Source: Escherichia coli (lineage in GTDB: Bacteria > Pseudomonadota > Gammaproteobacteria > Enterobacterales > Enterobacteriaceae). From it: DNA of 64,000 nucleotides. The notes under the pieces are model-generated. The model worked only from the letters and a program-made list of their open reading frames with translations. It was not told the DNA's origin and ran no database searches. The position numbers and the translations under genes are program-made. This document shows positions 31,976 through 52,700 of the stretch, piece after piece. The number at the start of each line of letters is the position of its first letter. Positions within the stretch are counted from its first letter, which is position 1. The DNA is taken from assembly GCF_030013205.1 (NCBI RefSeq), contig NZ_CP122648.1, one strand, 5' to 3'.

Positions 31976-32063
31976 GGAAGTGTGGCCGAGCGGTTGAAGG
32001 CACCGGTCTTGAAAACCGGCGACCCGAAAGGGTTCCAGAGTTCGAATCTCTGCGCTTCCGCCA
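31976..32063 (+). tRNA. serT: tRNA-Ser (anticodon UGA)
   Basis: GGAAGTGTGGCCGAGCGGTTGAAGGCACCGGTCTTGAAAACCGG...CGCTTCCGCCA, long variable arm, CCA encoded; 3' half lies in prophage att core. Confidence 0.95.
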
Positions 32064-32071
32064 AATAATCA
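32004..32071. repeat. Prophage att core copy, serT 3' half (attL)
   Basis: 68-bp identical to 52435-52502. Confidence 0.85.
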
Positions 32072-32105
32072 AGGGGTTACCAAATGGTAACCCCTTTGCT
32101 TTTTG
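32072..32105 (+). terminator. Intrinsic terminator after serT, supplied by prophage-side DNA
   Basis: Stem AGGGGTTACC / GGTAACCCCT followed by T-run. Confidence 0.7.
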
Positions 32106-32511: not shown

Positions 32512-32878
32512 TTACATTGTGTCTGGTTCTTCCGGCCACACAATATCCGGTGCTACTGATGTATCAACACGGTTCAGCAACACCCGATACTTTTTCCAGG
32601 CTTCCAGCAACGAGTTTTCTTCCTCCGTTGCGATCTCCAGATCTACAGCATCCTGAAGTGGCGCAATATGCTCACTGGCTACCTGCATCAGGCTGTTTTT
32701 TGTTTCTTCCGCCTCCCGGATCCGGAACAGTTTTTCTGCTTCTGCATCTTTCACCCAGGCTGTGCCGTTCCACTTCTGAAACTCCCCTTCCGGCGATAAC
32801 CAGGTAACATTTTCCGGTAACGGACCGAGTTCAGAAATAAATAACGCGTCCCCTGACGCTACGTCATAAACCGTTTTG
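32512..32878 (-). pseudogene. Tail fibre assembly protein (Tfa) C-terminal remnant
   Basis: ...[57 protein letters not shown]...[18 protein letters not shown] matches recalled Tfa family; N-terminus missing, fused at a deletion to stf remnant. Confidence 0.75.
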
Positions 32879-45702: not shown

Positions 45703-45736
45703 TAAAATTTCCTCCCGGTAAAAATTACTTCTCAAC

Positions 45737-46402
45737 TCAAACAAAACCAGCCGCTTTCCGGCGTTCATATTCCTGTTTCAGCAACTCAATTGGCGTTGGT
45801 CCCGACGGGTGTTTGGGTGCCGCCAGTTGTCGCCGGACTGGCGGAATGCTCAGGCCATTACCAACATGCTTTGCCCATTTCGTCAGTTGCCATTCTGCAA
45901 GCCGTTTTAACTCCCCTTCGGTCATCTGGCGCTCAATCCCCTTTGAACGCATCTCGAGGCAAATGTGATACAGCACAGGCTGAGACCACGGGTACTTATC
46001 ACTTCCGTCGTATCGCCAGGACTCATTGCGCCAGCGGCGGTACTCCTCCATCACAGCATCCACCGTCAGACCAAATGGATTGGCTCCGCTTTCCGAAATC
46101 AGCGCCACAAACTCAGCCAGGTCCGGAGGCCATGTTTCACCCGCCCGGCAGCGGTCCATGCACTGGCGGCAGACCTGCCGGATTTGCTGCTCAGTCATCG
46201 CGCCAATCTGTGCAATCCAGAGCTTCGAAGGTGCGGCCCCGTTCTTCTGGGTCCAGCGGTTCGAATAAACCTCCCCCATGAGTTCCCACAGCTTCCAGGC
46301 CGTTTCCGTCGCTGATAAATCCGTTTTCACGTTCCCACTGCTCACGTGCTGCCCGAATTTCCTGAACTGCTCGTGATGCGGTGCCACCTGGTGCTGCTGC
46401 AT
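45737..46402 (-). CDS. Lambda P-like replication protein (helicase loader)
   Basis: C-terminal half resembles recalled lambda P (DKYPWSQPVLYHICLEM..., ...ELLKQEYERRKAAG); N-terminal extent uncertain because the ORF overlaps the upstream gene. Confidence 0.5.
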   Translation of the reverse strand: MQQHQVAPHHEQFRKFGQHVSSGNVKTDLSATETAWKLWELMGEVYSNRWTQKNGAAPSKLWIAQIGAMTEQQIRQVCRQCMDRCRAGETWPPDLAEFVALISESGANPFGLTVDAVMEEYRRWRNESWRYDGSDKYPWSQPVLYHICLEMRSKGIERQMTEGELKRLAEWQLTKWAKHVGNGLSIPPVRRQLAAPKHPSGPTPIELLKQEYERRKAAGFV

Positions 46403-46652
46403 GGTTTACCCCCTTGCTGACTGGTTTAACCTGCGCCCTGACGTGATTTACGTGACGGGCGAATTTCTGCTCCCACTGAATCTGCGTGAACACTTTCCCC
46501 TCCGCTGCCCAGTAGTCCCGGAAGGCTGCAAATTCAGCTGGTGTAAATTCCGGCTCAGGCAGAGCCACTCCCCACAGAGCAGCCCGTCGTCGAAAATCCG
46601 GCGACGGATGCCAGCCATCGGTCATCGGAAATTTCCCGATGGGTTCGCTCAT
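46191..46652 (-). CDS. DnaT-domain-like replication protein, apparently N-terminally truncated
   Basis: KFPMTDGWHPSPDFRRRAALWGVALPEP...; starts with this segment directly and overlaps the P-like ORF in another frame. Confidence 0.45.
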   Translation of the reverse strand: MSEPIGKFPMTDGWHPSPDFRRRAALWGVALPEPEFTPAEFAAFRDYWAAEGKVFTQIQWEQKFARHVNHVRAQVKPVSKGVNHAAAPGGTASRAVQEIRAAREQWERENGFISDGNGLEAVGTHGGGLFEPLDPEERGRTFEALDCTDWRDD

Positions 46653-46691
46653 GCCGTCCAGATAAGCGAAGCAGCACCGCGAGGAATCAGT

Positions 46692-46910
46692 ATGCAGAAA
46701 CGAGAACCCGTCATCATCGCGCCAGACTATACCGATGATGAACTTTATGAGTGGATGCGCCAGAAAATTAATGCAGCGCAGGATCTGAAATGGGCCAATG
46801 AAGCCAGGGCTAAGCAGGCTGAAAATCTGTCCGCTCTGGAGCAGGATATCACCAGGCTGGAAAAAGCAGCGGCATTAAGCATTGCCAGAATGATTTCATA
46901 CCCGCGTTAA
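46692..46910 (+). CDS. Hypothetical small protein
   Basis: 72 aa ORF MQKREPVIIAPDYTDDELYEWMRQ... with GAGGAA RBS 6 nt upstream; opposite strand to the replication genes. Confidence 0.4.
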   Translation: MQKREPVIIAPDYTDDELYEWMRQKINAAQDLKWANEARAKQAENLSALEQDITRLEKAAALSIARMISYPR

Positions 46911-47045
46911 TAGCTAACCAACGAAGCTAAGGTTGGTAATTAAGGAGTTCTCCACGGGTCAGGTGGAGTGCGTGCGCCGGACACGGGTGAGCATCCGGTA
47001 CGTTCTTTAAAAATCTGGATAGTCCCAACTTATTTAAACGGTTAA

Positions 47046-47606
47046 TTATCTTGAGTTCATCCAGAACTTATTATTGCAAGCGGGGCAAAAAGTACGAAAA
47101 TGAGCATCAAAGCGCATTATTTCCATTGGCTGAAGTACAGATATTACCTTTTTTCCAAAACATTGTGGGCAAAGATACACAGTTATCTCAGTATCGCCTA
47201 TAAATTGCTTCTTGGAATATACAAGGGTTCCAGAATCAAGCTTGTTAAGCTTGTAACCTTCCGCCTGTCGCTGAAAATCTTCTGTCTCTGCAATTTTTGC
47301 TTTGAGATGCATTATCTCTTCATCACGAAAGCGGATCGCATCGCAAAGAGAGAAGCATTCCGCCTGAAGCGTGATTAGTTTGTTCTGAAGTTCAATAGTT
47401 GCGGCTTTAACTTCTGCATCCGTTTTTGCGTCATTAATAACCTTAGCGAGACCAGCTGTCTCCTTTATCGCAGCCATAGCCGCTGACAGTTCTGCTATCA
47501 CGTTGAGTACTCTTCTCGTTGTTGGGGATATCCGGATTATACAAATTTCTTGTTGTTGGGGAATAACAGGAACCACCTCGCCTGACGTGGTTAAAAGCAG
47601 GCACAC
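47046..47606 (-). CDS. Coiled-coil protein with C-terminal zinc ribbon
   Basis: ...DAEVKAATIELQNKLITLQAEC... then CPQC-x26-CPAC; likely start at MAAIKETAGL (47478); no helix-turn-helix evident. Confidence 0.5.
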   Translation of the reverse strand: MCLLLTTSGEVVPVIPQQQEICIIRISPTTRRVLNVIAELSAAMAAIKETAGLAKVINDAKTDAEVKAATIELQNKLITLQAECFSLCDAIRFRDEEIMHLKAKIAETEDFQRQAEGYKLNKLDSGTLVYSKKQFIGDTEITVYLCPQCFGKKVISVLQPMEIMRFDAHFRTFCPACNNKFWMNSR

Positions 47607-47692
47607 AACGCGAAAGCGTACGGCGAGGTAGCTGGTTCATAGATAGCCTGTCGTTAAATTTTCGTCGACCGTGCACTTCCGGTTGTGGCAAT

Positions 47693-47863
47693 CCGCGAAA
47701 TGGCGCGGCGGTAAGTATGGCTGGGTTATCCTTACCCCATTAGTGGCACCGGGTTGTCAGGTTGACCATACGCTTAAGTGACAACCCCGCTGCAACAACC
47801 CATGTTGATTACCTTTTGGCGGGTATCCGTTTTTTGTTTTCCCTTGTGATACCCGCCCTTTTT
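47693..47863 (+). ncRNA. Candidate structured RNA or leader: four consecutive hairpins ending in an intrinsic terminator
   Basis: Hairpins at 47693-47708, 47710-47736, 47750-47789, then terminator 47818-47863 (GGCGGGTATC...GATACCCGCC + CTTTTT). Confidence 0.35.
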
Positions 47864-48515: not shown

Positions 48516-48740
48516 ATGAGTAAAGTCTTTATTTGCGCCGCCATTCCGGACGAACAGGCAATAAAGGAAGAAGGTGCAGTCGCTGTAGCCACTGCCATTG
48601 AAGCCGGCGACGAACGCCGCGCCCGAGCCAAATTTACCTGGCAATTCCTGGAGCAATATCCGGCTGCTCAGGACTGCGCTTATAAATTTCTTGTTTGCGA
48701 GGATAAACCCGGCATGCCCCGCCCTGCCATCGACTCCTAG
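48516..48740 (+). CDS. Hypothetical prophage protein
   Basis: 74 aa ORF MSKVFICAAIPDEQAIKEEG... Confidence 0.4.
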   Translation: MSKVFICAAIPDEQAIKEEGAVAVATAIEAGDERRARAKFTWQFLEQYPAAQDCAYKFLVCEDKPGMPRPAIDS

Positions 48741-48752
48741 GATACCGAATAT

Positions 48753-50987
48753 ATGCAGGAAAACTGCTGGGATGAGGAATCCGCTTCCTTTATTCCGGTC
48801 GAACCAGAATCCGATCCGATGAACGTCAATTTTGACAAGCTGTCCCCTGAAGTACAGAACGCGGTCCTGGTTAAGTTCGACACATGTGAAAACATCACCG
48901 TTGATATGGTTATTAGCGCACAGGAATTGTTGCAGGAAGACATGGCAACATTCGACGGACATATCGTTGAAGCGTTGATGAAAATGCCAGAAGTTAACGC
49001 CATGTATCCGGAGCTTAAGTTGCACGCCATTGGGTGGGTTAAGCATAAATGTATTCCTGGTGCTAAATGGCCCGAAATTCAGGCAGAGATGCGCATCTGG
49101 AAAAAACGTCGCGAAGGTGAACGCAAGGAAACCGGAAAATACACGTCTGTTGTTGATCTCGCCCGCGCCAGAGCCAATCAACAGTACACTGACAATTCAA
49201 CAGGAAAAATCAGCCCGGTCATTGCTGCCACTCATCGCGAATACAAGCAGACATGGAAAACACTGGATGACGAACTGGCCTACGCTCTCTGGCCTGGTGA
49301 TGTGGATGCCGGAAACATTGACGGCAGCATCCATCGCTGGGCAAAAAATGAAGTTATCGACAACGACCGCGAAGACTGGAAGCGTATCTCGGCATCAATG
49401 CGCAAACAGCCTGATGCCCTTCGCTACGACCGCCAGACTATTTTTGGCCTTGTCCGTGAACGTCCGATCGACATTCACAAAGACCCTGTGGCACTGAACA
49501 AATACATTACTGAATACCTGACTACAAAGGGCGTGTTTGAAGATGAAGGAAGAAATCAGAGCGCAACTGATACTCTCTCGTCGCCAGTACCAGAAACTGA
49601 TGCAGTGGAAACGGCAATTCCGGACAACGAAAAAACCGAATGCAAAGTGGAAGTCGAACCATCTGTAGAGCGTGAGGGGCCGTTCTACTTCCTCTTCACC
49701 GACAAGGATGGCGAAAAATATGGTCGCGCAAACAAACTTTCTGGTCTGAATAAGGCGCTGACTGCAGGGGCTACTGAAATCACGAAAGAAGAATATTTTG
49801 CCCGTAAAAACGGTACATACTCAGGTTCACAACAAAATACTGGTGCATCTGACACGACCGCACAACCAGAGCCGGTAAAAGTTACCGCTGACGAAGTAAA
49901 CAAAATTATGCAGGCAGCCAATATCAGCCAGCCTGACGCCGATAAGTTGCTTGCTGTATCACGTGGTGAATTTGTTGCAGGGATTAGCGACCCGAATGAT
50001 CCGAAATGGGTGAAGGGGATTGAAACCCGCGATTCAGTGAATCAGAACCAGCAAGAAACGGAACAGAACGACCAGAAAGCGGAACAAAACAGCCCAAATG
50101 CGTTACAAAACGAGCCAGAAACGAAACAACCTGAGCCAGTAGCGCAACAGGAAGCGGAAAAAGTCTGCACCGCCTGCGGTCAGACCGGCGGCGGCAACTG
50201 CCCTGATTGTGGTGCGGTGATGGGCGACGCAACATACCAAGAAACATTCGATGACAAGAACCAGGTTGAAGTTCAGGAAGACGATTCGGAGAAAATGGAA
50301 GGCGCTGAACATCCACACAAAGAGAATGCTGGCAGCGCTCAGGATCACGCCAGCGATAGTGAAACTGGCGAGACGGCAGATCCCTTAATTACGGTGAACG
50401 GTCATCACGTTATCACATCCACCAGCAGGACGTGTGACCATCTAATGATCGACCTTGAAACCATGGGAAAAAATCCTGATGCCCCGATTATCTCAATAGG
50501 TGCAATATTTTTCGATCCGCAAACCGGAGATATGGGACCGGAATTTAGTAAGACTATCGATCTGGAAACTGCTGGCGGAGTCATTGATCGGGACACCATT
50601 AAATGGTGGCTTAAGCAATCACGCGAAGCGCAATCTGCCATTATGACCGATGAAATCCCGTTAGATGATGCACTGTTACAATTGCGGGAATTTATCGACG
50701 AAAACTCCGGTGAATTTTTTGTTCAGGTCTGGGGAAATGGAGCCAACTTCGACAACACGATTTTGCGCCGTTCATACGAACGGCAGGGGATCCCCTGCCC
50801 GTGGCGTTACTACAACGATCGCGATGTACGCACAATCGTTGAGCTGGGGAAAGCCATAGACTTCGATGCCAGAACGGCTATTCCATTCGAAGGTGAGCGC
50901 CATAATGCACTTGATGACGCCCGTTACCAGGCAAAATACGTTTCAGCAATCTGGCAAAAACTGATCCCGAATCCGGTTGATTTTTAA
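48753..50987 (+). CDS. Prophage exonuclease with C-terminal DEDDh 3'-5' exonuclease domain
   Basis: C-terminus MIDLETMG...ISIGAIFF...WGNGANFD...HNALDDARYQAKY; long acidic Gln/Glu-rich linker and CTACGQTGGGNCPDCG zinc-ribbon-like segment upstream. Confidence 0.7.
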   Translation: MQENCWDEESASFIPVEPESDPMNVNFDKLSPEVQNAVLVKFDTCENITVDMVISAQELLQEDMATFDGHIVEALMKMPEVNAMYPELKLHAIGWVKHKCIPGAKWPEIQAEMRIWKKRREGERKETGKYTSVVDLARARANQQYTDNSTGKISPVIAATHREYKQTWKTLDDELAYALWPGDVDAGNIDGSIHRWAKNEVIDNDREDWKRISASMRKQPDALRYDRQTIFGLVRERPIDIHKDPVALNKYITEYLTTKGVFEDEGRNQSATDTLSSPVPETDAVETAIPDNEKTECKVEVEPSVEREGPFYFLFTDKDGEKYGRANKLSGLNKALTAGATEITKEEYFARKNGTYSGSQQNTGASDTTAQPEPVKVTADEVNKIMQAANISQPDADKLLAVSRGEFVAGISDPNDPKWVKGIETRDSVNQNQQETEQNDQKAEQNSPNALQNEPETKQPEPVAQQEAEKVCTACGQTGGGNCPDCGAVMGDATYQETFDDKNQVEVQEDDSEKMEGAEHPHKENAGSAQDHASDSETGETADPLITVNGHHVITSTSRTCDHLMIDLETMGKNPDAPIISIGAIFFDPQTGDMGPEFSKTIDLETAGGVIDRDTIKWWLKQSREAQSAIMTDEIPLDDALLQLREFIDENSGEFFVQVWGNGANFDNTILRRSYERQGIPCPWRYYNDRDVRTIVELGKAIDFDARTAIPFEGERHNALDDARYQAKYVSAIWQKLIPNPVDF

Positions 50988-51053: not shown

Positions 51054-51305
51054 ATGTACGAATTAACTCTATCGCCAGCAGAGATTCAAGAGATCACGAA
51101 ATACGAGCGATACACAAAACAGCAACACCAGTTAAGGCTGCACGGTATCCCATTTGTAATCGGTCCTAAAAACGAACCAATAGTTCTTCGCAGGGATATT
51201 CCACACGGACTGACTACGATGCCAAAAGCACCTGAACTGGTTTCCGCTGAACCCGATTTTGAGGCGCTGAACAATGGGAAGACCAAGAAAAAACAAAAAA
51301 GATAA
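51054..51305 (+). CDS. Putative excisionase
   Basis: 83 aa ORF immediately upstream of and overlapping the integrase; call is positional. Confidence 0.45.
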   Translation: MYELTLSPAEIQEITKYERYTKQQHQLRLHGIPFVIGPKNEPIVLRRDIPHGLTTMPKAPELVSAEPDFEALNNGKTKKKQKR

Positions 51306-52293
51306 TGCACTACCACCGCGTGTTAGATCGAATGGTTACAGTTACGTATGGAAACCCGAAGGAAGCACAAGAACTATAGGGCTCGGAAGAGTGCGGGAAA
51401 CCAGCGTAGCTAAAGTCTGGCAAAATTATGAGCTGGAAAAAGCAAAACTCCACAACATAATGACAGTAGCTAAATTATGGCACATGTTTATGGACTCCCC
51501 TGCATTTACAGAACTGGCCCCCCGAACCCAAAAAGATTATCGGCAACATCAAAGGGCATTGTTGGCAGTATTCGGAAAAGTGCTTGCTGATAATGTAAAA
51601 ATTGAACAGGTAAGAATTTTCATGGATAAGCGAGGACTTGAGAGCAAGACCCAAGCAAACCATGAACTGGCAAGTCTGAGCCGTGTATACGGATGGGGAT
51701 ATGAGCGTGGGTATGTGAAAAATAATCCATGCAAAGGAGTCAGAAAATTCACACTTAAAGCCCGTACTGTTTACATCACCGATGAACAGTATGCTGCAAT
51801 ATATGCGGAAGCAATTCCACAGTTACGTATTGCAATGGAGATATCCTATCTTTGTGCGGCAAGGCTCGGTGATGTACTCGAGCTGAAATGGCAGGATATT
51901 ATGGAGAAAGGGATTTACATTGAGCAAAACAAGACCGGCACTAAACAAATCAAGGAATGGTCTCCGCGATTACGTACGGCGATCCAGTTAGCCCGAAATG
52001 TATCTTCCGGCACATGCGAGTATGTGATCAACACAACCAAAGGCGGGAAGGTAATAGCCAAGACGCTGAACAACTGGTGGAATCAGGCTAAACGTGCAGC
52101 CGAGCAAAAAGCCGGCGTTCCGTTTGGGTGCAACTTCCATGACATAAAAGCCAAAGGGATTTCACATTACGAAGGCAGCAGTCGCGACAAACAAATTTTC
52201 AGTGGACACAAAACAGAAAATCAGGTGTTGATTTACGATCGTAAAACCAAAATAACACCAACACTGGATTTGCCGCTTGTGGTCAGTAAGTAG
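51274..52293 (+). CDS. int: Phage tyrosine integrase
   Basis: 339 aa ORF 140 bp from the att core; C-terminal region with candidate catalytic residues (ARLGDVLELKWQDI; HDIKAKGISHYEG...LIYDR). Confidence 0.8.
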   Translation: MGRPRKNKKDNALPPRVRSNGYSYVWKPEGSTRTIGLGRVRETSVAKVWQNYELEKAKLHNIMTVAKLWHMFMDSPAFTELAPRTQKDYRQHQRALLAVFGKVLADNVKIEQVRIFMDKRGLESKTQANHELASLSRVYGWGYERGYVKNNPCKGVRKFTLKARTVYITDEQYAAIYAEAIPQLRIAMEISYLCAARLGDVLELKWQDIMEKGIYIEQNKTGTKQIKEWSPRLRTAIQLARNVSSGTCEYVINTTKGGKVIAKTLNNWWNQAKRAAEQKAGVPFGCNFHDIKAKGISHYEGSSRDKQIFSGHKTENQVLIYDRKTKITPTLDLPLVVSK

Positions 52294-52434: not shown

Positions 52435-52502
52435 CGGTCTTGAAAACCGGCGACCCGAAAGGGTTCCAGAGTTCGAATCTCTGCGCTTCCGCCAAATAAG
52501 AT
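52435..52502. repeat. Prophage att core copy (attR), partial serT 3' half
   Basis: 68-bp identical to 32004-32071, followed by a hairpin terminator AGGGGTTAG...CTAACCCCT + T-run. Confidence 0.85.
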
Positions 52503-52700
52503 AAGGGGTTAGCTAACTGCTAACCCCTTTTTCTTTTGCCTGTCGAAATTCTCAGGGCGTTATATTTGCTTAATGACCTGATAATCCGCTGTTAAACCTG
52601 TTCCAGATCAAATGCGTAAAGATGGGTAAAACTTCTGGGTGCCCTTACGCATTATCATTATGCTGCTTAATTAATTACATCTGTCATAGAGAGTGACTCA

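Follow-up and report, generated by a model that had tools for sequence, protein, structure and literature searches.

The window, by which we mean the whole 64,000-nucleotide stretch of Escherichia coli DNA that was analysed, carries a prophage remnant of ~20.5 kb between two att repeats, one of them at a serine tRNA gene (serT). The remnant is without head, tail and lysis genes, what persists of the tail genes being fragments or pseudogenes. Its exonuclease gene is interrupted by an in-frame stop that leaves two ORFs (48516–48740 and 48753–50987), and the integrase ORF (51274–52293) is intact, with no IS1 insertion. Two overlapping minus-strand ORFs make up the replication module, and the features relevant to their interpretation are as follows.

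32004–32103, no strand: att repeat at the tRNA-Ser (serT) end, overlapping tRNA-Ser 31976–32063
44977–45702, minus strand: DUF1627 gene, immediately 3′ of P in the same operon and unaltered compared with the intact relative
45737–46402, minus strand: lambda P family ORF from the ORF list, 221 aa if the start is the ATG at 46402
46191–46402, minus strand: out-of-frame overlap of the initiator tail and P, 212 nt
46191–46652, minus strand: DnaT-like ORF from the ORF list, 153 aa, beginning MSEPIGKFPMTDGWHPSPDF
46191–46664, minus strand: initiator 3′ remnant, codons 183–339 of a 339-aa protein, with a DnaT-like ssDNA-binding domain and an acidic C-terminal tail
46409–46415, minus strand: Shine-Dalgarno-like AAGGGGG, 6 nt upstream of the P ATG and within the initiator coding sequence
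46661–46664, no strand: deletion junction, a GATA 4-bp microhomology present in both parental flanks
46692–46910, plus strand: ydfC, of the early-left operon and the first gene left beyond the deletion
52435–52537, no strand: att repeat at the integrase/yccA end

When curated Pfam cut-offs are applied, the 153-aa ORF matches DnaT (PF17948) over residues 8–74 with 63.9 bits (cut-off 25), and the 221-aa ORF matches Phage_lambda_P (PF06992) over residues 56–188 with 59.2 bits (cut-off 26). The original prediction of a DnaT-like and a P-like ORF overlapping by 212 nt in different frames is therefore confirmed in both its coordinates and its domains. The overlap consists of the last 70 codons of the initiator and the first 70 codons of P, the two frames being shifted by one base. 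PHROG 109 (‘P-like helicase loader’) aligns with the P ORF at E=6e-63, residues 18–220 corresponding to profile positions 21–235 of 236, and a P-family helicase loader is encoded directly downstream of the initiator. A further profile, PHROG 15931, matches both ORFs over overlapping profile columns. An O-P fusion made by programmed frameshifting was considered; the only fusion-like proteins seen are singletons (P0101 and P0030), consistent with sequencing or assembly errors.

Residues 3–88 of the 153-aa ORF correspond to residues 84–169 of E. coli DnaT, i.e. its ssDNA-binding C-terminal domain, and the alignment extends over DnaT 84–157 in the structures PDB 9ZBT, 4OU6 and 6AEP. The likeness is confined to this domain. 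The NCBIfam equivalog profile NF002770 gives 95 bits where 201 are required and is matched at positions 82–169 only, and nothing in either the fragment or its intact 339-aa parent matches DnaT residues 1–83 in this profile. A DnaT-like domain is present, but the ORF does not encode a DnaT orthologue.

It had been noted from the sequence that this ORF begins directly with the DnaT domain, lacking an N-terminal initiator domain, and the profile alignments bear this out: PHROG initiator profiles cover the ORF at their C-terminal parts only (185–302 of 302, 200–345 of 345 and 179–265 of 277). An intact version of the gene is present in E. coli ETEC4073, where the same serT-integrated prophage remnant (locus L003) encodes an initiator of 339 aa. 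The 153-aa ORF represents codons 187–339 of that gene, its ATG being the internal Met187, and 46191–46664 is 100% identical to L003 10385–10858. We chose ETEC4073 as the intact reference for its collinearity with the window to either side. ETEC1732 (L002) was rejected for this purpose, given that its right flank is a different mosaic in which ydfC is only 97% identical and the neighbouring genes are rearranged.

A comparison with ETEC4073 reveals the window to follow L003 7222–10858 at 99.97% identity up to 46664, and to resume from 46661 at L003 13419, with the junction reading CCAGATA/AGCGAAG (slash at the point of joining). L003 10859–13422 is absent, and the window is thus missing 2,564 bp in relation to ETEC4073. 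The first 182 codons of the initiator (5′ 546 nt) have been removed, and with them the N-terminal origin-recognition domain that is present in intact relatives. A single illegitimate-recombination event between two GATA tetranucleotides would account for the junction, fusing initiator codon 183 to the last bases of ydfB. The parent protein is a lambdoid initiator, made up of a variable N-terminal part for origin recognition, a DnaT-like ssDNA-binding domain and, last, an acidic tail. We conclude that the DnaT-like ORF is very probably a pseudogene fragment, the 3′ part of an initiator gene that lost its 5′ part to a 2.6-kb deletion when the prophage had already decayed, and that its overlap with P is native to the module.

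The 153-aa ORF could instead be read as a complete, stand-alone small DnaT-domain gene that works with P, leaving the module intact. It does possess an ATG and a full, uninterrupted DnaT-like domain above the Pfam cut-off, and structures exist for the isolated C-terminal domain of E. coli DnaT (PDB 4OU6, 6AEP), so that the fragment may still yield a product of its own. Against a complete gene, the sequence recurs without a mismatch (100% identity) as the 3′ part of the 339-aa gene of a prophage that is collinear elsewhere, and homology to that gene stops 12 nt upstream of the ATG, at the microhomology junction. Furthermore, the initiator frame extends far upstream of the DnaT region in 10/10 homologous loci outside the window, six of which were confirmed to encode full-length initiators of 275–393 aa. 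No promoter-like site is found, the divergent ydfC start lies 39 bp away, and RefSeq treats the ORF as a pseudogene. A self-sufficient small gene is hence very improbable.

Less credible still is that the junction stems from a collapsed or chimeric contig and that the real genome has the full initiator, a worry that attends any unexpected junction and has nothing specific in its favour here. In megablast searches, the region 45500–46664 is widespread, while the continuation across 46664 is found in 17 of 5,426 complete E. coli genomes. The junction is identical in all of them, although they originate from different laboratories and from several countries, South Korea and Belgium among them, and the clean, 100%-identical flanks with a 4-bp microhomology are typical of a real deletion. 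All 17 genomes are from pigs, most being labelled ETEC or O139:H1.

For one junction-bearing strain, K_EC180 (100% identical over the query), RefSeq labels the ORF a pseudogene, ‘incomplete; missing N-terminus’. We did not carry over the annotation of this strain wholesale as, unlike the window, it has an IS1 insertion and a frameshifted integrase. The truncation is therefore already on record, and constitutes ordinary prophage decay. The ETEC4073 copy has an intact replication and immunity region, yet is itself without head, tail and lysis genes, so that the deletion struck an element already non-viable as a phage. The remnant resembles other decaying cryptic prophages of E. coli (Rac, Qin, DLP12 and the like) in its tRNA-gene site, loss of morphogenesis functions, pseudogenised tail genes, interrupted exonuclease and internal deletion. 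Nothing notable sets it apart from these, and this particular deletion is restricted to a single lineage associated with pigs.

In addition to the initiator 5′ 546 nt, the deleted segment carries ydaT, ydaS, racR, a DUF1391 (ydfA-like) gene and ydfB, together with two intergenic regions expected to hold the divergent early promoters. The initiator remnant now lies head-to-head with ydfC, the remnant ATG being 39 bp from the ydfC start at 46692. Furthermore, ydfC has lost ydfA-ydfB, which preceded it, and the intergenic region ahead of ydfA in which its promoter is expected. A consensus scan of 45600–47800 returned no sigma-70-like promoter (shuffled sequences average 2.1), and an early rightward promoter under immunity-region control was not found in the window, from which racR, ydaS, ydaT and both intergenic regions are deleted. 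This points to loss of the early promoters. P and the initiator fragment are probably transcriptionally silent: the P helicase-loader gene has an intact reading frame and probably no promoter. Read-through from the minus-strand gene at 47046–47501 could nevertheless transcribe P, as only a weak terminator-like site lies between the two. No RNA, DicF included, was detected in this region by an Rfam scan.

The deleted initiator sequence also harbours a candidate replication origin. In ETEC4073, the 546 nt contain five GTCACG motifs at 10–11 bp spacing, beyond which comes an AT-rich run (GATAAAGATACAGATAAAGAATTAAA). Three or four GTCACG copies form a second cluster ~250 bp upstream of the first. 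The 22-kb locus has 14 CGTGAC hexamers, eight of them within these 546 nt, and a single CGTGAC is left in the window between 45000 and 47500. We infer from the repeat pattern, and by analogy with ori-lambda inside gene O, that the phased GTCACG repeats and AT-rich run may act as the origin; no such combination of iterons and AT-rich run is found in or next to the initiator gene in the window. In the megablast searches, related prophages in the same genome account for 3–5 matching places per record. If the candidate repeats are indeed the origin, an initiator supplied in trans by these relatives could not rescue the element. Having lost initiator codons 1–182, the candidate origin repeats and the racR-ydaS-ydaT region through one 2,564-bp deletion, the element cannot initiate its own replication. 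Of the two options put forward in the original prediction, that of a truncated initiator in a replication-defective prophage is thus the one supported.

The second option, an internal P start in an unusual gene arrangement, concerns the overlap and not the deletion. RefSeq (PGAP) places P at 45737–46198, giving a 153-aa protein that starts at Met69 (46198) and overlaps the initiator stop by 8 nt. The P homologues in databases fall into length classes of ~221, 180, 153 and 140 aa, which reflect different start calls. To compare the two frames, we assembled 11 loci whose P proteins are 49–97% identical to that of the window: the window itself, Escherichia phage Rac-SA53, Citrobacter phage Chris1, prophages of Enterobacter, Salmonella, Klebsiella, Raoultella and Symbiopectobacterium, and three metagenome contigs. 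The diverged loci were gathered by protein search and contig look-ups. A scan of viral contigs with the 153-aa ORF returned 80 loci, all 95–100% identical, and was of no use for divergence.

The P ATG lies inside the initiator gene in 11/11 loci, with an overlap of 113–224 nt, the initiator of one locus (L091) ending after 113 nt of overlap. A GGAGGT, GAGGT, GGAGAT or AAGGGGG(G) sequence occurs 5–10 nt upstream of the P ATG in every one of the 11. The same overlapping layout is present in ETEC4073, Rac-SA53 and Chris1. The initiator-frame codon that holds the AT of the P ATG is CAT, AAT, TAT or GAT (His, Asn, Tyr or Asp), and the next codon always starts with G. Retention of a T-ending codon across four amino acids, followed by G, is the pattern expected if the P ATG is under selection. 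The 212-nt overlap is a conserved native feature of the module family, unrelated to the truncation, and the either/or framing of truncation against unusual arrangement accordingly falls away. Homologous prophages with the same two-gene layout had been named as the finding that would indicate an intact module. The layout and the P start are conserved in such homologues, but their initiator is ~186 residues longer, and the module in the window is not intact.

The overlap could nonetheless be an artefact of ORF calling, with P starting at the internal Met69 (8-nt overlap) or Met42 (89-nt overlap) and the upstream part of the 221-aa ORF being merely an open alternative frame of the initiator gene. 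The PGAP annotation and the length classes agree with such a start, and Met42 is conserved in 11/11 loci. An alignment of 17 P family members, on the other hand, shows M1 to be nearly invariant, as are W50, K53, N54, G55, P58 and W62, which all lie upstream of Met69 and are invariant or nearly so. Met69 is not conserved, position 69 often being Leu in homologues. BLASTP against lambda P aligned only the C-terminal residues 86–193, and family alignments were therefore used to judge the start. P residues 71–194 correspond to lambda P 82–203 (PDB 8V9T), and a start at Met69 would consequently leave out everything that corresponds to the N-terminal domain of lambda P, which is distinct from the DnaB-binding part of that protein (residues 103–233; PMC6391071). 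The alignment of PHROG 109 from residue 18 onwards likewise argues against an internal start.

Constraint on the two frames was assessed as mean pairwise nucleotide differences by codon position among the 11 loci, with the following values.

P residues 1–30 (overlap), P frame: position 1 0.47, position 2 0.58, position 3 0.47
P residues 31–41 (upstream of Met42), P frame: position 1 0.37, position 2 0.38, position 3 0.51
P residues 31–70 (overlap), P frame: position 1 0.29, position 2 0.24, position 3 0.50
P residues 72–221 (non-overlapping), P frame: position 1 0.29, position 2 0.22, position 3 0.57
Initiator-ORF residues 84–113 (first ~30 overlap codons), initiator frame: position 1 0.42, position 2 0.42, position 3 0.58

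The pattern in P residues 31–70 matches that of the non-overlapping part of P, with positions 1 and 2 conserved and position 3 variable, and it is also seen in residues 31–41, upstream of Met42. This is not what is expected if P starts at either internal Met. The first 30 P residues are poorly conserved, and variation among them peaks at P position 2, the wobble position of the initiator; this stretch would fit an internal start. The corresponding initiator-ORF residues 84–113 show a coding signature of their own and a conserved SRAVQxIRxAR motif. Constraint is partitioned within the overlap, the initiator dominating the first ~30 codons and P the last ~40.

Recoding simulations and stop counts allow the openness of each frame to be judged. 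With the initiator protein fixed, the P frame is open by chance in 24–67% of recodings, and its openness alone is thus uninformative, a point that leaves room for an internal start. With the P protein fixed and its codons resampled, the initiator frame is open in 1.5–21% of recodings per locus (geometric mean 6%). In the P-dominated part of the overlap, the initiator frame of ten loci has 0 stops in 390 codons versus ~19 expected, counts that are not independent as the loci are related, but that span at least five well-diverged lineages. Elsewhere in P the same frame contains 71 stops in 1,488 codons (4.8%). The amino-acid identity of the last ~40 tail residues is 0.39, not above the by-product baseline of 0.34; conservation of LDCxDW in the tail was therefore dismissed as a sign of selection on the tail sequence, and only the stop depletion stands. 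Sequence comparison supports selection for an open initiator frame, and this support does not extend to a particular tail sequence. In diverged homologues, both frames stay open through the overlap at a rate above chance, one of the features expected of a genuinely dual-coding pair.

When the ATG and ribosome-binding motifs, the invariant residues upstream of Met69 and the codon signature upstream of Met42 are considered together, the ATG at 46402 appears to be the best-supported start of P, and an internal start is probably wrong. We consider it unlikely that the overlap is an artefact of ORF calling. The suggestion that the true P start is internal, or that the arrangement is unusual, is also countered by intact phages and prophages, which have the same kind of overlap, as do eight further loci from Enterobacterales or metagenomes. 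Translation of P in this module family would start at an ATG with its own Shine-Dalgarno sequence, ~70 codons before the initiator stop, with ~210–224 nt common to the two frames. We found no description of this overlap in the literature searched, our coverage of which is incomplete.

The module can be compared to the O-P pair of phage lambda. The order is the same, initiator then P, downstream of an immunity region, and the P of the window belongs to PF06992 and aligns with lambda P residues 82–203. The ETEC4073 initiator gene has phased repeats and an AT-rich run, where lambda gene O has the annotated ori-lambda iterons. In contrast to lambda, the initiator is not O-like, an acidic tail following a DnaT-like ssDNA-binding domain in its C-terminal part. 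Whereas O and P overlap by 4 nt, the present module overlaps by 212 nt out of frame, and the window is without the initiator N-terminus and candidate origin.

The C-terminus of lambda O contacts the N-terminus of P. As in lambda, the initiator N-terminus is modular and exchangeable, and the C-terminal part travels with P. The N-terminal parts found ahead of this P family have no Pfam match in the parent of the window's fragment and in Chris1, match DUF1376 in Rac-SA53 and L091, and match HTH_36 in three other loci (L088, L090 and L092). The DnaT-like domain is kept in 5/7 scanned initiators, and the tail with the overlapping P in 7/7. An origin-specific N-terminus joined to a loader-specific C-terminus is the classical lambdoid pattern.

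A similar relation holds for the Rac-type early region, in which intact relatives have racR, ydaS and ydaT directly upstream of the initiator, a block that is missing altogether from the window. The ‘YdaU’ protein of Rac-SA53 is 94% identical to the C-terminal 153 aa, and its gene likewise overlaps a P-frame ORF of 221 aa by 212 nt. It differs in having a DUF1376 N-terminal domain, the 339-aa parent having another N-terminus. Profile searches for DnaT, DUF1376 and lambda P had been proposed as a check on the module. They matched PF17948 and PF06992, and DUF1376 (PF07120) is absent from the 339-aa parent (L003), while Rac-SA53 YdaU and L091 both match it.

For the window itself, the deletion is one more decay step of a cryptic prophage, with little wider meaning. 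One event took away the repressor, ydaS and ydaT (annotated as toxins), the candidate origin and half of the initiator, which would amount to a safe disarming for the host lineage. The truncation is accordingly of little interest, and the conserved overlap is a modest side finding. On balance, we lean towards the view that the initiator tail and the N-terminal ~70 residues of P are deliberately encoded by the same 210–224 nt in two frames, in a module widespread among Enterobacterales. If so, the P starts in the RefSeq/GenBank records examined, as well as those in the large 153-aa and ~180-aa clusters, would sit 41–68 codons too far downstream. A long conserved initiator/P overlap is missing from these records, and the P gene of the family appears, judging by the sequence alignments, to be called 41–68 codons late in them. 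One 153-aa P cluster was found on at least 1,000 contigs. The overlap would weld the two partners into one recombination unit, and this would explain why at least three unrelated N-terminal origin-binding domains are seen to precede the unit of DnaT domain, tail and P. If verified, the module would show cleanly, in a natural case, how constraint is divided between overlapping genes, and would connect gene overlap in a testable way with the joint inheritance of replication proteins that interact.

The start of P, the lambda-P-like helicase-loader gene that overlaps the initiator remnant, differs between annotations; several further features of the prophage remnant and its relatives are also described.

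Features of the window and of related loci
~42141..42703 (L001 2642..3204), plus strand: ParD/ParE type II toxin-antitoxin pair
45737..46198 or 45737..46402, minus strand: P, two start calls (RefSeq WP_236265426.1)
47046..47501, minus strand: gene of unknown function (PHROG 1244)
47568..47603 (ETEC1732 locus L002, 8819..8855): 37-bp stretch
48516..50987, plus strand: exonuclease gene, 3'-5' exonuclease domain
ETEC4073 locus L003, 10961-11026 and 11237-11276: GTCACG repeats and second cluster, absent from the window

The PGAP call for replication protein P is 153 aa long and starts at Met69, and cluster P0024, made up of 153-aa proteins, occurs on at least 1,000 contigs; another length class, of ~180 aa, begins at Met42. 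Alignment of the family indicates that both starts are set too far downstream. PHROG 15931 (482 columns) matches both the initiator-remnant and P ORFs, with overlapping profile columns. In the singleton database proteins P0101 and P0030, P is joined to DUF1376 or DUF1627 domains. Such proteins may represent a real fusion; they are probably the product of frameshift or assembly errors merging adjacent genes.

The 47046..47501 gene, whose product carries CxxC...CxxC motifs at its C-terminal end, sits between ydfC and dicB and shares its strand with P and the remnant of the initiator. Apart from read-through out of this gene, P has no obvious source of transcription.

The intact initiator gene of ETEC4073 contains, in its linker-coding part, five GTCACG motifs spaced 10-11 bp apart and adjoining an AT-rich run, with a second GTCACG cluster ~250 bp from the first. 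The repeats and AT-rich run constitute a candidate iteron origin, located inside the initiator gene just as ori-lambda lies inside gene O.

The 37-bp stretch is immediately upstream of ydfC in ETEC1732. Its counterpart in the window lies ~900 bp off, on the far side of the 47046..47501 gene. These prophages have mosaic early-left regions that differ in their arrangement. The ParD/ParE pair is embedded in the nin-like region on the opposite strand, and may help to retain the remnant. An Rfam IS009 match (223 bits; 32555..32753, minus strand) lies just inside the remnant, adjoining truncated tail-fibre genes.

The 823-aa exonuclease is intact in ETEC4073, and in the window an in-frame stop (48738..48740) divides it into ORFs of 74 aa and 744 aa. 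K_EC180 carries an IS1 insertion (L093 8138..8899; compared with window 38900..38914) and a frameshifted integrase. As the window has no IS1 at that position and retains an intact integrase ORF (51274..52293), it and K_EC180 are separate members of the lineage that carries the deletion.
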